Positions 53,149 through 62,099 of a stretch of 64,000 nucleotides of DNA are shown here, in pieces; within the stretch, counting starts at the first letter, position 1, and every line of letters begins with the position of its first letter. The translations under genes were made by a program, and so were the position numbers. Below the pieces are notes generated by a model. The model was given only the letters and a program-made list of their open reading frames with translations. It was not told the DNA's origin and ran no database searches. Origin of the DNA: Gemmatimonadota bacterium (GTDB lineage: Bacteria > Gemmatimonadota > Gemmatimonadetes > Gemmatimonadales > GWC2-71-9); contig JADFNB010000008.1 of the NCBI GenBank assembly GCA_022563595.1, positions 258-64,257 on the forward strand, read 5' to 3'.

Positions 53149-54000
53149 CTACGCCGCGAGCCGCTCGACGATCATGACGCCCAGCAGGACGGGAAGATAG
53201 GCGAGCGACGCCAGGAACAGGCGCCGAGCCCTGCCGGAAGTCGCTTCCCGGGCGAAACTATACGCCGTGCCGACGAGCAGGGCCCCCAGCGCGCTTCCGG
53301 CTATCAGTGAGGCCGCTCCCGTGAGTCCCCAGATCCCGGGCATGAGGCTCGCCGGTAGCAGCGCCAAAGCGTACAGGAGCGCCTGCCGCCCGGACGATCC
53401 TCCGGTGGGATCGACGACGGAGAGCATCTTGAGCCCGCCCCGCCTGTAGTCCTCCCGGTACATCCAGCCGAGTGCGAGGAAATGGGGGACCTGCCAGAGA
53501 AACATGATGTTGAACAGGACCCAGCCTTCGAGCGAGAGCGCGTCGCGTGCCGCCGTCCAGCCGCCCAGAATCGGAAGCGCCCCGGGGAACGACCCGACGA
53601 TGGTGGCGAGCGGGCTCTTGCGTTTGAGGGGCGTGTACACCAGCACGTAGCTCACGACCGTCAAGAACGCCAGCAACGCCGTCAGGGGATTGACCAACAG
53701 GAACAACTCGGCGCATCCGACGGCGGCCAGGCCAGCGCCAAAAACGAGGGCAGGCCCCTGGCCGATACGGCCCGACGGAAGCGGGCGGTGGCGGGTCCGC
53801 CGCATCAGCGCGTCGACATCCCGTTCCCACCACTGGTTGAGCGCGTTGGTACCGCTGGCTACCAGGCCGGTGCCGACGAGCAACGAGACGAGCAGCCCCA
53901 GGTCGATCTCACCCGTGGTACCCAGCACGAACCCGGCCGTGGCGGTGAGCACAACCAAGCGGGTGATGCCCGGCTTCGTGAGTTCCAGGAACGTCTTCAT
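53149..54000 (-). CDS. cyoE: Protoheme IX farnesyltransferase (heme o synthase, CtaB/CyoE)
   Basis: LTKP, D..MRRT..RPLPSG, YTPLKR, G..PGALP.L.GW, WQ.PHF, YREDY..GG. Confidence 0.94.
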   Translation of the reverse strand: MKTFLELTKPGITRLVVLTATAGFVLGTTGEIDLGLLVSLLVGTGLVASGTNALNQWWERDVDALMRRTRHRPLPSGRIGQGPALVFGAGLAAVGCAELFLLVNPLTALLAFLTVVSYVLVYTPLKRKSPLATIVGSFPGALPILGGWTAARDALSLEGWVLFNIMFLWQVPHFLALGWMYREDYRRGGLKMLSVVDPTGGSSGRQALLYALALLPASLMPGIWGLTGAASLIAGSALGALLVGTAYSFAREATSGRARRLFLASLAYLPVLLGVMIVERLAA

Positions 54001-54240
54001 CAGAGCCGCTCGACGAGCTGGACGACGGCGTCCGCCCCGGCGTTCACCGCTCAGGAGGTGCTCTCCTGAGCCAAGCCCCCACCTGTCAGCAATGTGCGGC
54101 AGCCGCGCCGGGACATCGCGCCACGGATCGAGCGTAACGATGAAGACAGGGAGAATGAGCGGGCAGATCGTCTGGCAGTGGGCATACGCAAAGGTAACCA
54201 ACGAGGGGCGCTTCAGCGTCACCAGCGTGCCCGACTGGTC
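54000..54240 (-). pseudogene. SCO-family copper chaperone remnant
   Basis: DQSG..VTL..TFAYAHCQTICP (CxxxC) joined to VTLDP.RD; tail AVVQLVERL* in another frame overlaps the cyoE ATG; no start. Confidence 0.75.
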
Positions 54241-54242
54241 AC

Positions 54243-54461
54243 TTCACCGACCCCGGCACGATCGCCACCGTCGTGGAGTCGTACCCGTTCTGGCGAATCG
54301 AAGAGGGTGCGCCCGGGCTCCCCGCCATCGCGACCCCGTGGAACTCGGCCATGCCGTCGTGGAAGGACCAACTCACATCGGACGAGATCTGGCGCATCAT
54401 CCTCGCCGAGTACCGGATCAGCGGCAGGGAGCCACGGACGCCGGAAGGGGGTGAGCGGTGA
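54243..54461 (+). pseudogene. C-terminal remnant of a cytochrome c
   Basis: FTDPGTIA..ESY.FWRI..G.PGLP...PWNSAMP.W..L..DEIW; the CxxCH-bearing N-terminus is absent; stop overlaps the next GTG. Confidence 0.7.
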
Positions 54462-56137
54462 CCCGGCGCCTCGACGTCATCGTCTGGGTCGCGATTGCCA
54501 TCGCCCCCCGCGCTGCTTCAGCGCAATGGATGGACTTGTCCGTCCCCGAGCGGCCAGTTGCAGACGCTGCGAGCATCGCAGCGGGTCGGCGTCTCTACGA
54601 GGAACGATGTTGGTTCTGTCACGGTGAAGACGGCGACGGAACCGGCCCGGTGGCCGAGTACCTCTGGCCCCGACCGCGTGACTTCACGCTTGGCAGCTAC
54701 AAGTTGCGCACCACCTCGAGCGGCGAACTTCCCACAGATGAGGACTTGTTCCGCACGGTCTCACTGGGGATTCCAGGCACCGCGATGCCGGAATGGCAGT
54801 CGGTACTGTCCGAACAAGAACGGTGGCAGGTCATCTCATACATCAAGACGTTCGCCGAAGGACTGTTCGAGGATGAGGATTTTGATCCCTACGCGTTCAT
54901 CGTCGAGATCGGTTCGCCGCCCGAAGGCTCGACGGAGGCATTGGTCGCCGAGGGGCAGCCCGTGTTCGACGAGGCCGACTGCTGGGAATGCCACGGCAGC
55001 TTGGGACGCGGTGACGGAGAACGGGCCTCCGAACTCACCGACGACTGGGACTTTCCGATCCTGCCGACTGACCTGCACACCGGATGGAAGATCAAGGGGG
55101 GCAGCACGCCTCGCGAGATCTACCTGCGCCTCAGCACGGGGCTCGATGGCACGCCGATGCCGTCGTACTCGGAGACGCTGAGTGAAGACGACCGCTGGCG
55201 TCTCGCGTACTATGTCTCCTCGCTCGCCGCACCGCTCGCCGGCGCGCCAGCCACCGGCGTGGTGATCACGGCAAGGCGTGTGGACGATTCGCTGCCGACC
55301 ACGCCTGATGATGCAGCGTGGGCGGACGTCCCCGCGACGTGGCTCACCCTCTCCGGTCAGGCCACGTTCCCGCCGCGCTGGCAGATCCCCGCCGTGTCCG
55401 ATCTCGCGGTGCAAGTTCTCTATAACGCCACTGATGTCGCGCTTCGTCTCCGGTGGGACGACCGTTTCATGGACACGGTGTCTGTCGACTCTGCGCTCGC
55501 GCGTCGTGAGGGATGGGAAGCCAATGATATGTTCCCGCGACTTTTTCCCGATGGCGCTCGGATGCGTGCCACGCACCCCGATGGTGTGGAGGTGATGTTC
55601 CCACTGCGCTACGCCGGAAGACCGGAGCTTCCGCACTTCGTGTACGGAAGCGCAGGGCAGCCAGTCGACCTCTGGCGCTGGCGGGCGGACCGCGCCGGCG
55701 GTCCGACGGCGGTCGAACTCCGCGGGCGAGGTGCGTCCCAGCCACCCGAGCCACATGAGCCCGAGAGCCAGCGTGCGTCCGCGCGGGCCACGTGGGCAGA
55801 CGGCCAGTGGACCGTCGTTCTCCGCAGGCCGCTCACGACAGACGACGGTGCACGAGAGGTTCAGTTGGAGCCGGGTCGAATCATCCCGATTGCCTTCCAC
55901 GTGTGGGAAGGTGCCAACGGCGAGACAGGCCTGAAGATGGCGCTCTCCTCGTGGTACTTCCTCCATCTGCGGGAATCGGCTCGCGCGTCGAGTTACCTGG
56001 TCGTGCTGCTCCTCGTCCTCGGGACCGTGGGCGCGGAGTACGGACTGATCGTGTGGCTCCGCCGGCAGCGGGACTCCGGGTGGCTGAGTCGCTTCGGAAT
56101 CACCCCGGGTCCCGACGACGCGCGGCGCCCCTCATAG
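54458..56137 (+). CDS. Di-heme cytochrome c fused to ethylbenzene-dehydrogenase-like (DOMON heme b) domain, C-terminal TM anchor
   Basis: CWFCH and CWECH; PRPRDFT.G.YK.R.T, GTAMP, GTPMP; RLRWDD, W.DG.W.V..RRPL, AF.VW.G.NGE; terminal TM helix. Confidence 0.85.
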   Translation: MTRRLDVIVWVAIAIAPRAASAQWMDLSVPERPVADAASIAAGRRLYEERCWFCHGEDGDGTGPVAEYLWPRPRDFTLGSYKLRTTSSGELPTDEDLFRTVSLGIPGTAMPEWQSVLSEQERWQVISYIKTFAEGLFEDEDFDPYAFIVEIGSPPEGSTEALVAEGQPVFDEADCWECHGSLGRGDGERASELTDDWDFPILPTDLHTGWKIKGGSTPREIYLRLSTGLDGTPMPSYSETLSEDDRWRLAYYVSSLAAPLAGAPATGVVITARRVDDSLPTTPDDAAWADVPATWLTLSGQATFPPRWQIPAVSDLAVQVLYNATDVALRLRWDDRFMDTVSVDSALARREGWEANDMFPRLFPDGARMRATHPDGVEVMFPLRYAGRPELPHFVYGSAGQPVDLWRWRADRAGGPTAVELRGRGASQPPEPHEPESQRASARATWADGQWTVVLRRPLTTDDGAREVQLEPGRIIPIAFHVWEGANGETGLKMALSSWYFLHLRESARASSYLVVLLLVLGTVGAEYGLIVWLRRQRDSGWLSRFGITPGPDDARRPS

Positions 56138-56146
56138 ATTCAAACA

Positions 56147-56206
56147 ATGCGCATGGTCGCCTTCCTCACGGAGCCCAAGGTGATCGACCGCATCCTCGGT
56201 CACTTA
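56147..56206 (+). mobile_element. Possible IS91-family transposase C-terminal scar
   Basis: MRMVAFLTEPKVIDRILGHL matches the MR..AF.....VI..IL.HL tail typical of these transposases; only 20 codons. Confidence 0.5.
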
Positions 56207-56245
56207 CATCGTACTGCGATGATGCGCGTCGCACACCTGATGCGA

Positions 56246-57463
56246 TCACCCAACGTTCCATAGGGCGCCGGATTCCATGTCCTCGAATGCCGGTCGATAC
56301 AGCTGAAGGCACGCTGCGCGCCAGTCCTCATCGATCTGCACCACCTTATCCGCCCATGCGTGACAGTAGCGGCAGTCGTCACAATCACGTTCCCGGCATC
56401 CTTCCGTCACGAACCGCTGCATGAACCCGTCGAGCGCGCGGTTGTCGATGTATACCGGTGATCCACCTGCGGAGCCGAGCAACCCGCGTTGCCGCGCGAG
56501 CTCGTATAGTCGCGGCAGGGCGCGCCAGCGGACGCCCCCGAGCTGCAGGAAATGGCGGGCCGCCCACCCGGGTCCGCGCCGCGGCGGTTTGCGCCCACTC
56601 GACTGAAAGCCGTACGGTTGTACCAGGTCAAGGAGGTTCCCGTCGTATCGGCGCTGGTGATACGCGCGGGCCCGGAGCACGAGTACGTCGGTGGGGGCGT
56701 TGCGCTCGGTGAGTTTGAACTCCTCGTAGCCTAGCTGCTCGTAGTGTACGACATCTTCCGGTCGAATCCAGTCGGCGCGGATGTAGTTGACAGGATCCAG
56801 GATCTTCTTGTGGGAACACCACAGGAGACACCAGTCGATGACACCGCGACGGGCGGGGCGCCCTCGCTGTGAGGCGTGGCTCAACACATTGCAGTGATAC
56901 CGTTCCAGCGGACAGCTCTGGAGACAACTGTTGCTCGCGAGGAGTTCCAGCCGACAGTTGACGGCGAGCCGAATCTCCCGCAACAGGGCGAATTCTCGGT
57001 TGCACTGTATCGAGTCCAGCGTGATACGATCGGCACCAAGTTCCTCCCAGTAGCGAACTCGTCTGGTATCGTTCACCGCAGCGAAGACGCCCACGCGAAC
57101 CTCGAAACCGGGATAGGCCGCCTTGATCAGGCGAAGCAGAAACGGACTTGCCACCGTAAGGGCCGTGACGCCAATGTCATCCAGCCACGCCAACAGGCGG
57201 CGGATCCGGCGCTGACCGGTTCGGGTGTATTCCCGATTGTCGAGACAGGAGGCATTCAGCAGATAGTTGAACCCGAGGCCCGCTTGCCGGCAGGCCACGA
57301 CGTGGCGCTTGAGCGCGCGGCGTGACGTCGGGGCCAACATGAAGCTGGCGCGCCCACCACCGATGATATCTGCGGGGAGCTTGCCGTAGAGTTCGAAGAC
57401 GTCGAAGTGCCGGACGAGATCCGGGAGCGCGTCATCGAAGTTGGTGGCCAGCGAAATCCTCAT
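56246..57463 (-). CDS. Peptidase U32 family protein (Cys-rich, probable Fe-S)
   Basis: GGGR, FNYLLNA.C, CLQSCP..H, C...C, WIRPED...Y..LG..FK..ER; C-terminal C....C..C.YC; GAGG RBS. Confidence 0.85.
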   Translation of the reverse strand: MRISLATNFDDALPDLVRHFDVFELYGKLPADIIGGGRASFMLAPTSRRALKRHVVACRQAGLGFNYLLNASCLDNREYTRTGQRRIRRLLAWLDDIGVTALTVASPFLLRLIKAAYPGFEVRVGVFAAVNDTRRVRYWEELGADRITLDSIQCNREFALLREIRLAVNCRLELLASNSCLQSCPLERYHCNVLSHASQRGRPARRGVIDWCLLWCSHKKILDPVNYIRADWIRPEDVVHYEQLGYEEFKLTERNAPTDVLVLRARAYHQRRYDGNLLDLVQPYGFQSSGRKPPRRGPGWAARHFLQLGGVRWRALPRLYELARQRGLLGSAGGSPVYIDNRALDGFMQRFVTEGCRERDCDDCRYCHAWADKVVQIDEDWRAACLQLYRPAFEDMESGALWNVG

Positions 57464-57518
57464 GGACACCTCACATCTGGGACTCGTGTTCGAGGAAGCG
57501 TTTCTACACGCGCCTCGG

Positions 57519-58886
57519 TCAGAACGCCAGGTGGAGTGAGATCCGGGAGAAATCCTCGAACAGCGGCAGCGCCGGGGCCGAATCGTCGGACCACGTGGTG
57601 CCGAGCATCAGCATGATGTTGGAACCAAGGAGCACCAGCAGATCCGCCGAGTAGCGCTCGAAGCTCGACGGAAATCCCGCCGGGAACCCACGGACGTCCA
57701 CCCGTTCGTAGCGAAAGCCCGGCACCAGCCAGGGATGCAAATACGCTTGCACCTCTCCCATCGTGACGATCGCGGACGGATCGCTGAGCTGCGGGCGCTC
57801 GAGGTGGTCGTTGAAGAACTGCACCGACCCCAAGAGACTGAGATACCCGTTCTCCTGCTCCCATCGGAGGTCCACGCCCCAGCGGTTGAACTGGTTTCCG
57901 GCGCGCAGGAAGGTGTCAGGGTCGTCGGGATCCTGTAGGAAACCTGATGTGCCCCGGTAGTAGAACCCTCCTACTGAAACCGCCCCTCGGAGCCACGTTC
58001 CGTAGTTCAGACGGGCGTAGTAGTCCTTCTGATTGTTGAAATCGAACTCGCCCCCTGACTCCGCGTACGCCTCTTCGAGTCCCTCCACCAACTCGCCCGC
58101 GGGGCCTTCGCTCCCCTCAAGAGCCTCGAACGCACCACCCGGCTCGCCATTGATCAACCCGATGGCATAGGCGAATTCTCCGAGACCCCCGGGGCCGGGA
58201 ACGCGACCGAATGCCTCGATCCCCTTTTGATTGGGGGAGAAGCCGAAGAAGTTCTGCGACGGCAGGATCGGGAAAACACCGTTCAAGTACGGGGTGATCC
58301 GCAACATGCGACGGTGGTTTGAGAACGCGATGGCGCGCGGCTCGAACTGGCCCACACGGACGTTGAGTGCCAGTGACCGGTTGTACTGTACGAACAGGCG
58401 GTCGATCCCCTCGAACTCTCCGTCTTCCAACAGGGCCACATTGCCAAAGAAGGAGAAGTACTGGCCCATGCCACCACCGAATATCAGTCCCACGGAGCTG
58501 ATACCGGTGAACTCCACCTGGACATCCTCATTCGGGCTATAGCGGAAATCGCTCAACACCTGGAACGACGCGACTGACGTCGCGGGGATGTCAATGAACG
58601 GAATCTGGCTTCCACGCCTCCCCTCCGGCGTTTCCGCCGGCGAGCCGAGCGGTAGTGGGCGCTCTCCGCGCTCCATGTCGGCACCCGGAAGGCGATACCC
58701 CTTTGCCCGAAACAATCTCCCGTACTCGGTCAGCGCGGGGAACACCGTGTGGCATGTGCTGCAACTCAGCCCGTAGCGCCGCGCGAAGCTGGGAACCCGT
58801 TTTTCGGCACGGGAAACCAGCCCCATGGGCAAAACGACGGCGGCAAACCCGACGGTGGCGACGTACCCTCTCCAGGTCCCGGTCAT
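57519..58886 (-). CDS. Cyc2-like monoheme cytochrome c / outer-membrane porin fusion
   Basis: Signal peptide then VPSFARRYGLSCSTCHTVFPALTEYGRLFRAKGY; amphipathic beta strands; C-terminal Phe. Confidence 0.8.
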   Translation of the reverse strand: MTGTWRGYVATVGFAAVVLPMGLVSRAEKRVPSFARRYGLSCSTCHTVFPALTEYGRLFRAKGYRLPGADMERGERPLPLGSPAETPEGRRGSQIPFIDIPATSVASFQVLSDFRYSPNEDVQVEFTGISSVGLIFGGGMGQYFSFFGNVALLEDGEFEGIDRLFVQYNRSLALNVRVGQFEPRAIAFSNHRRMLRITPYLNGVFPILPSQNFFGFSPNQKGIEAFGRVPGPGGLGEFAYAIGLINGEPGGAFEALEGSEGPAGELVEGLEEAYAESGGEFDFNNQKDYYARLNYGTWLRGAVSVGGFYYRGTSGFLQDPDDPDTFLRAGNQFNRWGVDLRWEQENGYLSLLGSVQFFNDHLERPQLSDPSAIVTMGEVQAYLHPWLVPGFRYERVDVRGFPAGFPSSFERYSADLLVLLGSNIMLMLGTTWSDDSAPALPLFEDFSRISLHLAF

Positions 58887-58964
58887 AGCTGCCTGTCTCC
58901 CCGTTGTTTTGACCCTACGGTTAGGCGGCCGACAACGTCGAGCGCCTGTCGCCGGGCTGGTGCG

Positions 58965-59720
58965 CTACTGCTGAATGATCGAGAGCAGGTAGTTCGTCAT
59001 ATCCCAGATCTGGTCCGAGGTCAGCGCGTCGGCCCAGCTGGGCATGGGCGTCCCGCCGATACCGACAGCGATGCTCCGGTAGATGTCCACCGGCCGGTTG
59101 CCACCTCGCCAGTTCCGCGAGATCCTGAGGTCAGCCGGGACGATGGGATACCCCCAGTCATCCTCCAGGGTCGGTGCCGACGGCCCGTCCCCCTTCCCGA
59201 GCATTCCGTGACATTTCCAACACTCGGCTTCGATGTAGAGCCGCCGTCCGGCAAGGACACTCTCTGGAAGCGGAGGCTTGGGCGTCCCGATGGCAATCGG
59301 GACCAGGCGCCCGTCCGTCCGAAACGCGGCGGCGAACGTTTCGATATAGGCCACTAACGCCCACCGTTGCTGCTCGGACAGGTTCGACCACGCCGGCATC
59401 GTCGTTCCCGGCAGTCCGCGGGACAGTGTGTTGAACAGGTCCTGATCCGTCGGAAGTCCACCCGTGGGCGTCGAATGGATCTTGAAAACGCCCAGGGTGA
59501 GGTCGCGTGGACGGGGAAAGACATACCGCGCTACCGGGCCGTCGCCCCGGCCGCTCGAGCCATGGCAGAACACGCATCGGCGCAAGTAGAGCCGCCGGCC
59601 GGCTCGCACCAGGTCCGCCCGTGAGGTCAGGTTACCGTCCGGGGCATACTGCGCCGCCGCCTCAGCCACTACGCACAATGCAACTGCGGCGACGAGCACG
59701 GAGATCCTGGGTGTGCCCAT
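58965..59720 (-). CDS. Exported di-heme cytochrome c
   Basis: GGAGG RBS; signal peptide; CVFCH and CWKCH; GTTMP and GTPMP distal Met motifs. Confidence 0.9.
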   Translation of the reverse strand: MGTPRISVLVAAVALCVVAEAAAQYAPDGNLTSRADLVRAGRRLYLRRCVFCHGSSGRGDGPVARYVFPRPRDLTLGVFKIHSTPTGGLPTDQDLFNTLSRGLPGTTMPAWSNLSEQQRWALVAYIETFAAAFRTDGRLVPIAIGTPKPPLPESVLAGRRLYIEAECWKCHGMLGKGDGPSAPTLEDDWGYPIVPADLRISRNWRGGNRPVDIYRSIAVGIGGTPMPSWADALTSDQIWDMTNYLLSIIQQ

Positions 59721-59787
59721 GAATCCTCCATAGACAACTGCGCGCGTGATCATGACGCCGTCGCTGCACACTCACGGGGCCGCGGAT

Positions 59788-60555
59788 CTAACGGGACGCA
59801 AACCGCGCCTGAACCTGCGCTTCCCCCCCAGCGGTGACCGTAACCTGCTGCGTCTCGGTCCCAAGCCGCTCGTGCCAGAACTGCAGCGTGTACGTACCAG
59901 GCGGGACATCGTCGAGCCGGTAGTTCCCATCCTGATCCGTGATCACATAGTAAGGGTGAGCTGCCACCGCAATCCAACCACTCATCCAGTTGTGCGCATC
60001 ACATTCGACATGCACGATCTCCGCATGAGCTAGGCGTATCCTGACGGACCGCAGAAACCCCGGTTGTGCCTTGTTGACCGGCCGATTCTCCGTACCGCGG
60101 GTGTGCACATTGTGTAGGATCCCGTCGTTGTTCCAGACTTCGAATTGCTCCCCGACCGGTACGATCAGAACGTGCGGTACAAAGCGGCATCCGTTCTGCG
60201 CGAGGGCGGCAGGAGAGTGTCGCGGTTCCCACGCTTTTCCTTCCCGGATATCACTGATCCATACGACAACGTTCTGTAACCCACCGCCGCCGCCGACCAG
60301 CAGATCCTCGGCGAACTGCGGCTCCCGCGCGCAGACCACCGTGTCTATCGTGATCGCGAGCCGGCGCGGAGTCGATGCCGTGCCTGTGAAGGTGACTTGG
60401 CCGACGATCGCACCGCCGTCCGAAACATCACCGGTAACGTAGTCACCCTGCTGAGCCGAGATCGGTGCAGTGATGCCTGATAGCAGACTGACGACGAAAA
60501 GCCCAATCCGACGACTGGTAGCAGCGACACATTGAACTGCTGTTTGGGACGCCAC
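59788..60555 (-). CDS. Exported cupredoxin-like protein with carboxypeptidase-regulatory-like domain
   Basis: Signal peptide; Q.GCRF.PHV, LHNVH, CDAHNWM (His...Cys-x2-His-x2-Met); HPY..TD..G.Y.L..VPPG.Y..WHE. Confidence 0.78.
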   Translation of the reverse strand: MASQTAVQCVAATSRRIGLFVVSLLSGITAPISAQQGDYVTGDVSDGGAIVGQVTFTGTASTPRRLAITIDTVVCAREPQFAEDLLVGGGGGLQNVVVWISDIREGKAWEPRHSPAALAQNGCRFVPHVLIVPVGEQFEVWNNDGILHNVHTRGTENRPVNKAQPGFLRSVRIRLAHAEIVHVECDAHNWMSGWIAVAAHPYYVITDQDGNYRLDDVPPGTYTLQFWHERLGTETQQVTVTAGGEAQVQARFASR

Positions 60556-60633
60556 GGTCGATGCGCTCCCGCATAGGATGTGAACCCGTTGAGAGCCTCC
60601 CCGGGCGCTGTCACTATGAAGTACGCTGTATGA

Positions 60634-60660
60634 AGGTTACCTGAGTTTTCAGTGAAACCT
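60634..60660. promoter_or_regulatory. Imperfect inverted repeat in the divergent intergenic region
   Basis: AGGTTACCTGA-GTTT-TCAGTGAAACCT. Confidence 0.3.
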
Positions 60661-60848
60661 GCCTTAGCCCCGACACCCGGGACACCAACGGATTGTCACG
60701 CGACGACCCTACTTGTCGCATGCGAAGAGGAGCCGCCTACACCAGGAACAAATACAACAGTTCCACTCGTGATTATTGGAGCGAAGACCTTGACGATGTG
60801 ATCGGCGGGAGACCTATTAGCGATGTGGAACTTCGAGGAGAATGACCG

Positions 60849-62099
60849 GTGACCACTACACTCGATCATCGACAGCTCTACCGGCTTCCGTGGACCCTGC
60901 CGGACAACGCGATCGCGTGGCTGGAACCCACAATGAAGTGCAACTTGGCGTGCGAAGGCTGTTATCGGGCAAATGTAAGCCAACACAAGTCCCTCGAGGA
61001 GGTGGCGGCGGACCTGGACGTCTTCGACCGTTACCGCAACGCCGACGGTGTTTCGATCGCCGGCGGGGATCCACTCACCCATCCCCAGATCGTCGACATC
61101 GTGCGGATGGTCGCCGACCGCGGCTGGAAGCCCATCCTCAACACCAACGGCCTCGCTCTCACTGAGGACCTTCTCCGAGAGATGAAACGTGGAGGCCTCT
61201 TCGGCCTCACGTTACACATCGACAGCAAACAGCATCGTCCAAAATGGAAGAACAAGACCGAACAGGAACACAATGCCTTGCGGCTTCACTATGCGGAGAT
61301 GGTCGCACGCGTCGGCGGACTCACCTGCTCATTTAACGCCACGGTGTATGGGGATACGCTCGACGCCGTTCCGGACCTCGTGGCCTGGGCGCAGGAACAC
61401 ATCGATATCGTGCACGTCATGGTCTTCATCTGCTACCGCGAGCCCGCACAACCCACTCAGTTCGACTACTACGCGGGCGGGCAGAAGGTGGACATGGGGC
61501 CGCTGACGTACGAGGACACGGGACAGCGAATCGACATCTCCGCCCCGGAGGTCGTGGCCAAGATCCGCCAGCGGTTTCCTGACTTCGAGCCCTGCGCGTA
61601 TCTCAACGGCACGGAGAAGCCGGATTCCTTCAAGTGGCTTCTGGCCAGTCGCCTGGGCACGCGCAAGCGGATATACGGTTACACGGGGCGCAAGATGATG
61701 GAGCTGGCGCAGGTGTCGCACCATCTCAGGACCGGACGGTATATGGCCTACGCGCCCCCCGCGGTACTTCGGCGGGGCAGATGGCTGCTCTGGCTCTGGC
61801 CGTTCGATCGCGGCGTCCGGCGCGCCTTTCTGCGTGCGCTGCGCTCTCCCAGCCTCCTATTTCGCCGCCTGCACCTGCAATCGATCATGATCATCTCACC
61901 GGTCGAGGTACTGGCCGACGGACGGCAGAACATGTGCGACGGCTGTCCGGACATGACCGTTTGGGACGGCGAGTTGGCCTGGTCGTGTCGGCTGGAAGAA
62001 TGTATCCATTTCGGTCAGTTCGTACGGACGGTGCCGAAGGAGCACGCGATGCCGAAACCGGCCAAGCCCGACCTCGTCACGCTCCGGCTCGGCGGGTAA
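60849..62099 (+). CDS. Radical SAM protein of unknown function
   Basis: CNLACEGC, IAGGDP, TNG; C-terminal MCDGCPD..SC..EEC. Confidence 0.9.
   Translation: MTTTLDHRQLYRLPWTLPDNAIAWLEPTMKCNLACEGCYRANVSQHKSLEEVAADLDVFDRYRNADGVSIAGGDPLTHPQIVDIVRMVADRGWKPILNTNGLALTEDLLREMKRGGLFGLTLHIDSKQHRPKWKNKTEQEHNALRLHYAEMVARVGGLTCSFNATVYGDTLDAVPDLVAWAQEHIDIVHVMVFICYREPAQPTQFDYYAGGQKVDMGPLTYEDTGQRIDISAPEVVAKIRQRFPDFEPCAYLNGTEKPDSFKWLLASRLGTRKRIYGYTGRKMMELAQVSHHLRTGRYMAYAPPAVLRRGRWLLWLWPFDRGVRRAFLRALRSPSLLFRRLHLQSIMIISPVEVLADGRQNMCDGCPDMTVWDGELAWSCRLEECIHFGQFVRTVPKEHAMPKPAKPDLVTLRLGG

Follow-up and report, generated by a model that had tools for sequence, protein, structure and literature searches.

Three adjacent genes in the 64,000-nucleotide (nt) stretch of DNA analysed here (the window; positions 258 to 64,257 of contig JADFNB010000008.1, from a Gemmatimonadota bacterium) encode a predicted exported blue-copper protein (A), a dihaem cytochrome c (B) and a monohaem cytochrome fused to a porin (C) that resembles the iron oxidase Cyc2. 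A, B and C form a conserved module, and on balance we consider it probable that they constitute one extracytoplasmic electron-transfer system, in which electrons would pass from Fe(II) through C and B/A to an aa3 oxidase. A fourth gene, D, follows on the same strand. The original prediction, made from the sequence alone, had joined all four into a candidate outer-membrane electron-uptake unit.

59788-60555, minus strand: A, cupredoxin with a CarboxypepD_reg domain, 255 aa
58965-59771, minus strand: B, dihaem cytochrome c, 268 aa as listed, with the likely start at Met18 (59720)
57519-58886, minus strand: C, Cyc2-type monohaem cytochrome-porin fusion, 455 aa
56246-57469, minus strand: D, Cys-rich U32-family protein, 407 aa, a neighbour outside the module

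The list of open reading frames (ORFs) gives intergenic gaps of 16 nt (A/B), 78 nt (B/C) and 49 nt (C/D), in agreement with the four co-oriented genes and gaps below 80 nt originally described, and a sequence check recovered every motif that had been quoted for A, B, C and D. By inspection, without a predictor, the N-termini of A, B (from Met18) and C are hydrophobic and signal-like. One 4637-nt contig in an independent run from marine sediment (X3) spans 56169-60805 with 20 differences. As this contig covers D, C, B and A, their contiguity is no assembly artefact of this genome, and the D-C-B-A arrangement is real in this population. Near-identical copies of the stretch occur in marine-sediment metagenome runs from several studies, which indicates that the population is not rare. 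A promoter and terminator scan yielded no promoter-like and three terminator-like sites, not above shuffled sequence. The window's own genome is 96% complete and contains one A-type haem-copper oxidase; the RuBisCO large subunit, the sole carbon-fixation marker looked for, was not found in it. Named relatives of A and C come from metagenome-assembled genomes (MAGs) titled Gemmatimonadota and, in some cases, Acidobacteriota.

The marks of the Cyc2 family, as given by Keffer et al. (2021, PMC8406198), are a signal peptide, one CxxCH, the motif AxPxFAR[Q/K][T/Y] upstream of it, PxL four residues downstream, a length of at least 365 aa and a porin. C carries one CxxCH, at residue 42 within PSFARRYGLSCSTCHTVFPALTEYGRLFRAKGY, in an N-terminal signature that reads PSFARRY-GLS-CSTCH-TVF-PAL...GRLF...GY, and it ends in ...HLAF, with an aromatic last residue. 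Upstream of the haem site it has RVPSFARRY, in which the PxFAR core and Y are present and R takes the place of A and of Q/K; the consensus among 22 aligned relatives is AVPSFARKY, with P32, A35, R36 and Y38 invariant. The spacing from this motif to CxxCH equals that of ARQTG-type proteins. Residues C42, C45 and H46 do not vary among 23 relatives, and in the following H46-TVF-P50-A-L52 the PxL lies four residues past CxxCH, with P50 invariant and L52 at least 90% conserved. Apart from R at the A and Q/K positions C shows the published marks, and by these operational criteria it would count as a Cyc2 homologue. Among the six-frame ORFs of at least 150 aa in the 3.25-Mb genome, the PxFAR...CxxCH pattern occurs once, which excludes a chance occurrence.

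The AlphaFold2 (AF2) model of C (predicted local distance difference test, pLDDT, 70; predicted template modelling score, pTM, 0.71) contains 16 strand elements, spread over residues 105-454, and the N-terminal haem region before them is poorly modelled. A Foldseek search with this model retrieved the general and phosphate porins OmpT, Omp32, OprP and OprO, with E values down to 1e-12. Sequence profiles were less informative: C has zero Pfam and zero NCBIfam matches, a PDB sequence search with it gave nothing relevant, and each of its 87 homologues is annotated as hypothetical protein. The family comprises 249, 1601 and 4202 representative clusters at E≤1e-30, 1e-10 and 1e-3, respectively. The Cyc2-like N-terminus and beta-barrel that had been read from the letters of C are thus borne out by the PxFAR core, CxxCH and PxL, by the 16-strand model and by the porin matches.

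The copper-ligand motif of A consists of H148 and C185-DA-H188-NW-M191. All 25 of 25 aligned A-family members, from many phyla, have H148, C185, H188 and M191, and the four ligands are kept in 43 of 44 copies of A that adjoin a Cyc2-like gene or an oxidase. The AF2 model (pLDDT 88) displays a central cupredoxin domain, which Foldseek matches to amicyanin, plastocyanin, pseudoazurin and NirK with target-normalized TM scores of 0.6-0.7 and, for the first three, a probability of 1.00. Fold and invariant ligands together sustain the earlier view of this protein as blue-copper type. Pfam recognizes CarboxypepD_reg alone, at residues 201-250, in a C-terminal beta-sandwich; its cupredoxin models (Copper-bind, Cupredoxin_1) do not match A at E≤0.01. 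Likewise, the rusticyanin models in Pfam and NCBIfam give no match to A at E≤0.01, and rusticyanin is absent among the Foldseek matches listed. The protein also has an N-terminal extension of ~80 residues, and C75 and C123 are further invariant Cys residues in part of the family. Judged by ligand pattern and modelled fold, A is an exported amicyanin-like type-1 copper cupredoxin with a predicted copper site.

B contains two Cytochrom_C Pfam domains, with CxxCH at residues 66 and 184. Its closest solved relative is PDB 6h5l chain B (E value 3e-64, residues 54-267); cytochrome c4 is not named among its 8 PDB matches at E≤1e-3, and the NCBIfam match to cytochrome 579 is sub-threshold (35 bits, cut-off 280). 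Another relative is found in the window itself, among the features that flank the four genes:

54458-56137, plus strand: E, membrane-anchored dihaem cytochrome c with EB_dh (haem-b, DOMON-like); Pfam Cytochrom_C twice and EB_dh
53149-54222, minus strand: UbiA-family prenyltransferase (Pfam UbiA, E value 9e-57), respiratory context
60849-62099, plus strand: F, radical SAM protein (Pfam Radical_SAM), divergent from A, a neighbour of the module
56147-56214, no strand: short repeat separating E and D, which converge here

B shares 48% identity with the N-terminal half of E. With the corresponding half of E′, a dihaem cytochrome c with EB_dh encoded on contig C43 of the same genome, it shares 42%. 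E itself, a paralogue of E′, matches PDB 6h5l_B (E value 6e-64) and 2ivf_C, is 37% identical to E′ over 510 aa, and adjoins the UbiA-family gene, which we read from family and context as a haem O synthase. On C43 the gene order is cytochrome-bd-subunit-I-like, cytochrome c, E′, A′, COX2, COX1 and COX3, where A′ is a cupredoxin with CarboxypepD_reg that is 34% identical to A and keeps its ligands. The order E′-A′-COX2-COX1 is present in 29 of 30 loci, these being the best 30 A′ loci from 121 Gemmatimonadota genomes. On this sequence evidence A and B are paralogues of A′ and of the cytochrome half of E′, respectively, and their probable origin is best explained by duplication of the oxidase's own donor proteins. 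The location of A′ and E′ directly upstream of COX2-COX1 indicates a probable path from the Cyc2-like protein via B/A to the aa3 oxidase. F, too, has a paralogue in the C43 oxidase region (26% identical). With counterparts of E, A, B and F at C43, the window locus partly mirrors the oxidase locus. A radical SAM/SPASM protein with a PCP_red domain opens the C43 oxidase region (L118:2463-14583).

A search for Cyc2-like genes in 401 Gemmatimonadota genomes gave matches in 157, including G156 and G057, where each match was weak and no locus was taken. G057 also figures among the genomes without a match in the searches for D and A′, and no other result depends on these two genomes. A close orthologue of C (81% identity) exists only in a same-genus genome among the 401. 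The neighbourhood census covers the 72 best-scoring matches with their flanks, a sample biased to N-termini like that of C, and neighbours were scored by tblastn with A and B. A and/or B adjoin 40 of these 72 genes. The order is A-B-C in 2 loci (the window and its congener), C-B-A in 21, A-C in 11 and C-A in 4; one further C-B-A locus (L160) has A in two pieces, and one C-B pair is ended by the contig. In a maximum-likelihood tree of 89 barrels (quick search, LG+G4, SH-aLRT, with long-branch warnings), the A-associated clade (SH-aLRT 99) holds C of the window, named Acidobacteriota and Planctomycetota proteins and the A-B-C loci, and the C-B-A loci form a clade with an SH-aLRT of 100. Two groups are partner-less, one of shorter barrels and one an ARQTG-motif clade that groups with proteobacterial-type proteins. 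The neighbourhood labels change 20 times on this tree compared with a mean of 52.9 for shuffled labels; gene order follows barrel clade.

Loci beyond this sample display the same linkage. Two contigs of named Gemmatimonadota MAGs (L041 and L042) provide two more A-B-C loci, in which C is 72%, B 66-67% and A 52-53% identical to the window's proteins. In 80 metagenome loci, A adjoins 28 of 40 ARKY/ARRY-type barrels (10 A-C, 17 C-A and 1 with B upstream and A downstream). One of these 40 has B only, and 11 are partner-less, 10 of which are short of room on one or both sides; ample room is available only at L214. Beside ARQ-type barrels A was found at 0 of 26 and B at 2 of 26. Altogether the linkage of A, B and C persists in at least five gene orders, namely A-B-C, C-B-A, A-C, C-A and B-C-A (L176). 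The synteny expected for the four-gene order holds in part: A-C and B-C linkage extends across many genomes and several orders, but D did not recur at the other module loci inspected.

In the same-genus locus (L031, 750-8579) A-B-C has different neighbours: a pair of CusB-like and AcrB-family efflux proteins, a YtkA-like protein, a porin and a DUF4440 protein. There the module is not beside E, D or F, and hence it has moved between genomic contexts within one genus.

Further genes accompany particular gene orders. In 16 of 20 A-C/C-A loci a gene for a sigma-54-dependent response regulator lies upstream of the pair, and in 12 of 20 one for a HAMP/PAS histidine kinase does, for example at L037:9549-10937 and L049:127-2061; the module in the window has neither. 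A multihaem cytochrome c of ~650 aa lies ~3 kb downstream in 7 A-C/C-A loci. In 21 of 24 C-B-A loci A is followed, on its own strand, by a fourth conserved ORF that Pfam does not recognise (e.g. L168:5188-6000). Three partner-less short barrels (G398:C12, G357:C31 and G377:C76; L130, L132 and L149) sit in frames of 739-801 aa with PxFAR...CxxCH mid-frame, which may represent an N-terminal fusion or a mere open upstream frame in GC-rich DNA.

The A family also extends beyond the phylum, with at least 593 matches among species-representative genomes. We fetched 80 cross-phylum loci (L038-L117) and ran Pfam on one example per neighbour cluster. In 51 of them A is encoded directly downstream of a multihaem cytochrome c of ~900 aa, and the parts of a split cytochrome b precede in 43 and 27; the taxa with this arrangement are Binatia, Methylomirabilota, Acidobacteriota and others. 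This setting marks the A family as a respiratory electron carrier. Outside Gemmatimonadota it appears to be a copper protein, so far uncharacterised, that carries electrons for a bc-type complex, and the family as a whole is predicted to be a general respiratory copper carrier with one branch coupled to Cyc2-like porins.

The path that we favour, with modest confidence, starts at the outer membrane. C, with its one c-haem, would withdraw electrons one at a time from a soluble reductant outside the cell, most likely Fe(II). The periplasmic dihaem protein B and the copper protein A, which presumably contact C and one another and whose relative order is provisional, would carry these electrons across the periplasm, and the aa3-type haem-copper oxidase would receive them from B/A. 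A heterotroph might gain supplementary energy or Fe(II) detoxification in this manner. Typical blue-copper potentials are about +290 to +370 mV. The Cyc2 of PV-1, with 208 mV (PMC8406198), falls below these general values, so that inward flow, the direction we infer, would be downhill.

A number of observations weigh against this path. C has R where the published Cyc2 motif has Q/K, and HHalign of the C subfamily versus 15 ARQTG-type proteins aligns the cytochrome region only, not the barrel (64 columns, probability 99%, E value 5e-18). In the census 32 of the 72 Cyc2-like genes have neither A nor B, although 5 of them had flanks of only 1.5 kb. A Cyc2-like gene occurs in only 5 of the 80 cross-phylum A-family loci, and A is therefore not specific to Cyc2. 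The CusB/CusA-type efflux and YtkA-like neighbours in the same-genus genome could point to metal homeostasis. For marine Gemmatimonadota, moreover, PMC11316326 states that annotation cannot separate iron oxidation from reduction.

Some of these observations would also suit the same architecture with another donor, such as Mn(II), Cu(I), reduced humics or quinones, iodide or sulfur species, or a function in redox sensing or metal detoxification. Family membership is the whole basis of the Fe(II) assignment, the barrel has diverged from canonical-motif Cyc2-like proteins past profile detection, and to the efflux and YtkA-like genes beside the same-genus module are added the dedicated two-component genes at A-C/C-A loci, which suggest induction by a specific signal. 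Yet every Cyc2 homologue assayed in the literature consulted oxidised Fe(II) (PMC8406198; PMC13647500 for a Cluster 3-type protein) and the haem-domain motif is conserved, and we regard a different donor or role as unlikely. Electrons might instead flow outwards, from a bc-type complex or the quinol pool via A and B to C and on to Mn(IV) or chelated Fe(III) outside. The acceptor-like position of the A family behind a cytochrome b/multihaem cytochrome c complex in 51 of 80 loci would fit such a route, as would the illegible direction of flow in Gemmatimonadota annotation noted above. Conversely, A′ and E′ occupy a donor position to the oxidase, upstream of COX2-COX1 in 29 of 30 loci, and for electrons from blue copper a transfer to a monohaem Cyc2, at about +200 mV, would run uphill, on potentials that are in part general background values. 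No Cyc2-family reductase was found in the literature searched. Outward flow thus strikes us as rather improbable.

Mere adjacency by chance, without a functional link, we hold to be scarcely credible, as the linkage is kept over at least five gene orders and recurs in Gemmatimonadota, in named Acidobacteriota and Planctomycetota relatives and in many metagenomes. Only slightly more credit is due to one functional unit of four genes including D, as originally proposed. D is co-oriented with C and close behind it, no terminator-like site lies in the C-D gap, and the D-C-B-A order appears again on the single contig of the independent run. However, D, which has 14 Cys residues, lacks a signal-like stretch at its N-terminus, and at E≤1e-10 it is present in 1 of the 301 Gemmatimonadota genomes searched, namely the window's own (G000), where it is the sole U32 protein. 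Neither the same-genus genome nor the loci L041 and L042 have D beside A-B-C, and it is missing from each of the 80 metagenome loci. D is cytoplasmic and no part of the module; its location in the cell, its occurrence in 1 of 301 genomes and its absence beside related modules place it outside the system, and the U32 protein drops out of the unit first proposed. We read it as a recent insertion unrelated to the module. At its 3′ end is the repeated element at 56147-56214 (68 nt), which has 4 further copies of 43-68 nt with 88-93% identity on contigs C19 (2), C7 and C40. In four metagenome runs contig depth increases 3- to 8-fold at the repeat, and there are loose contig ends at 56141 and 56214.

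The family assignment of D rests on a Pfam Peptidase_U32 match of 35.2 bits (cut-off 22.4) that covers residues 88-151 only, and on an Atlas structure match (TM 0.96) to U32 clusters, 96% of which carry PF01136; in the Atlas, the clusters nearest to D occur most often in Thermodesulfobacteriota and Myxococcota. NCBIfam adds a weak TrhP match. A role for D as an O2-independent hydroxylase acting on haem, with the haem O synthase nearby, was considered and discarded: the genome has a normal CtaA on contig C41, and D is not conserved. F was not found beside A-B-C in the same-genus locus or at L041/L042. We also examined the notion that 56.2-62.1 kb is an acquired island. The GC content is 0.61-0.63 in D, C, A and F and 0.55 in the A-F intergenic region, compared with 0.654 for the genome; this is a weak hint only, and B, at 0.651, is not low. 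On the far side of E, the UbiA-family ORF has an N-terminal extension of ~70 aa (FAYAHCQTICP...DPWRD; Pfam SCO1/SenC, E value 1e-4, residues 4-25), which may be what is left of a truncated or fused SCO1, or reflect an over-long ORF call. Upstream of E, a 62-aa ORF (54273-54461, plus strand) ends, by eye, like the C-terminus of a class-I cytochrome c, MPSWKDQLTSDEIWRIILAEY, and may be a cytochrome fragment or a small cytochrome gene.

Cyc2 homologues in Gemmatimonadota are already in print (PMC9769843, PMC10367259 and PMC11316326), and one of these papers terms the groups in question putatively heterotrophic. The original prediction of an analogue of the Acidithiobacillus Cyc2 chain in an apparently heterotrophic lineage thus keeps its partners from other families and gains their conserved linkage, but homologues in heterotrophs as such are not new. 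A full-text literature search did not find the module of Cyc2-like protein, dihaem cytochrome and cupredoxin or the oxidase-operon paralogy, although supplementary trees and logos outside that search may hold the subfamily. Tentatively, and with less than even confidence, we suggest a widespread, dedicated pathway of lithoheterotrophic Fe(II) oxidation or electron uptake in Gemmatimonadota and their Acidobacteriota and Planctomycetota relatives. Its carriers would have originated by duplication of the aa3 donor module E′-A′ and been coupled to a Cyc2-type porin, making this a second, independent invention of the chain from Cyc2 via dihaem cytochrome and blue copper to aa3.

If this is true, iron oxidation would have gone unrecognised in heterotrophs that abound in sediment, and the three genes would serve as a marker by which to recognise them. 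Cyc2 serves as a metagenome marker for iron oxidation, and most of its homologues are in heterotrophs. The locus and its relatives would give these homologues a concrete, testable electron path. The module separates Cyc2-like clades with dedicated carriers from those without, and its three-gene signature is more specific than Cyc2 alone. For A and B, both small and soluble, it is feasible to measure the potentials and how they react with the porin-cytochrome.

The proteins can be set beside known systems. The U32 family includes TrhP, RlhA and the O2-independent hydroxylases UbiU/UbiV; D has the same fold and Cys clusters and, itself, no conserved link to the Cyc2-like module. PDB 6H5L is a HAO-type octahaem structure from Kuenenia stuttgartiensis, and its chain B, which we take to be the dihaem redox partner of that HAO, is strongly similar to B over the whole mature protein. 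Here the partners are a Cyc2-like porin and a cupredoxin or, for the related domain in E and E′, the oxidase, not HAO. With amicyanin, plastocyanin and pseudoazurin A shares the fold and the four ligands. The copper loop of amicyanin is short, with C-x2-H-x2-M spacing, and that of A has the same spacing. A adds to these proteins the N-terminal extension of ~80 residues and the C-terminal CarboxypepD_reg.

C shares with the Cyc2 of neutrophilic iron oxidisers (Mariprofundus PV-1 and others) the signal-like N-terminus, the single CxxCH, PxFAR, PxL, the 16-strand porin and the length, but differs in the R at the A and Q/K positions and in a barrel that HHalign does not align to ARQTG-type proteins, and the RuBisCO large subunit was not found in its host. 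Cyt572/Cyt579 of Leptospirillum and other Cluster 3 Cyc2 homologues have the same fusion and N-terminal motif as C, with different partner proteins. In vent metagenomes, Cyc2 homologues were reported from Gemmatimonadota MAGs among 17 phyla, with ~75% of homologues in cluster III (PMC9769843); as that text puts only other phyla in clusters I and II, its Gemmatimonadota homologues would by exclusion belong to cluster III, with Leptospirillum Cyt572. In the rus chain of Acidithiobacillus ferrooxidans, Cyc2 works with the dihaem cytochrome c4 Cyc1, rusticyanin and an aa3 oxidase (PMC10654088). The partner families differ from those of Acidithiobacillus, as had been anticipated: A is amicyanin-like with CarboxypepD_reg and has no rusticyanin match, and B has no c4 match at E≤1e-3. 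The oxidase genes are here on another contig, and the host is a marine-sediment bacterium in which the RuBisCO large subunit was not found. The logic of the two systems is nevertheless the same, namely an outer-membrane cytochrome-porin, a periplasmic dihaem cytochrome, a type-1 copper protein and an aa3 oxidase, and in both the carriers are encoded beside the porin-cytochrome.

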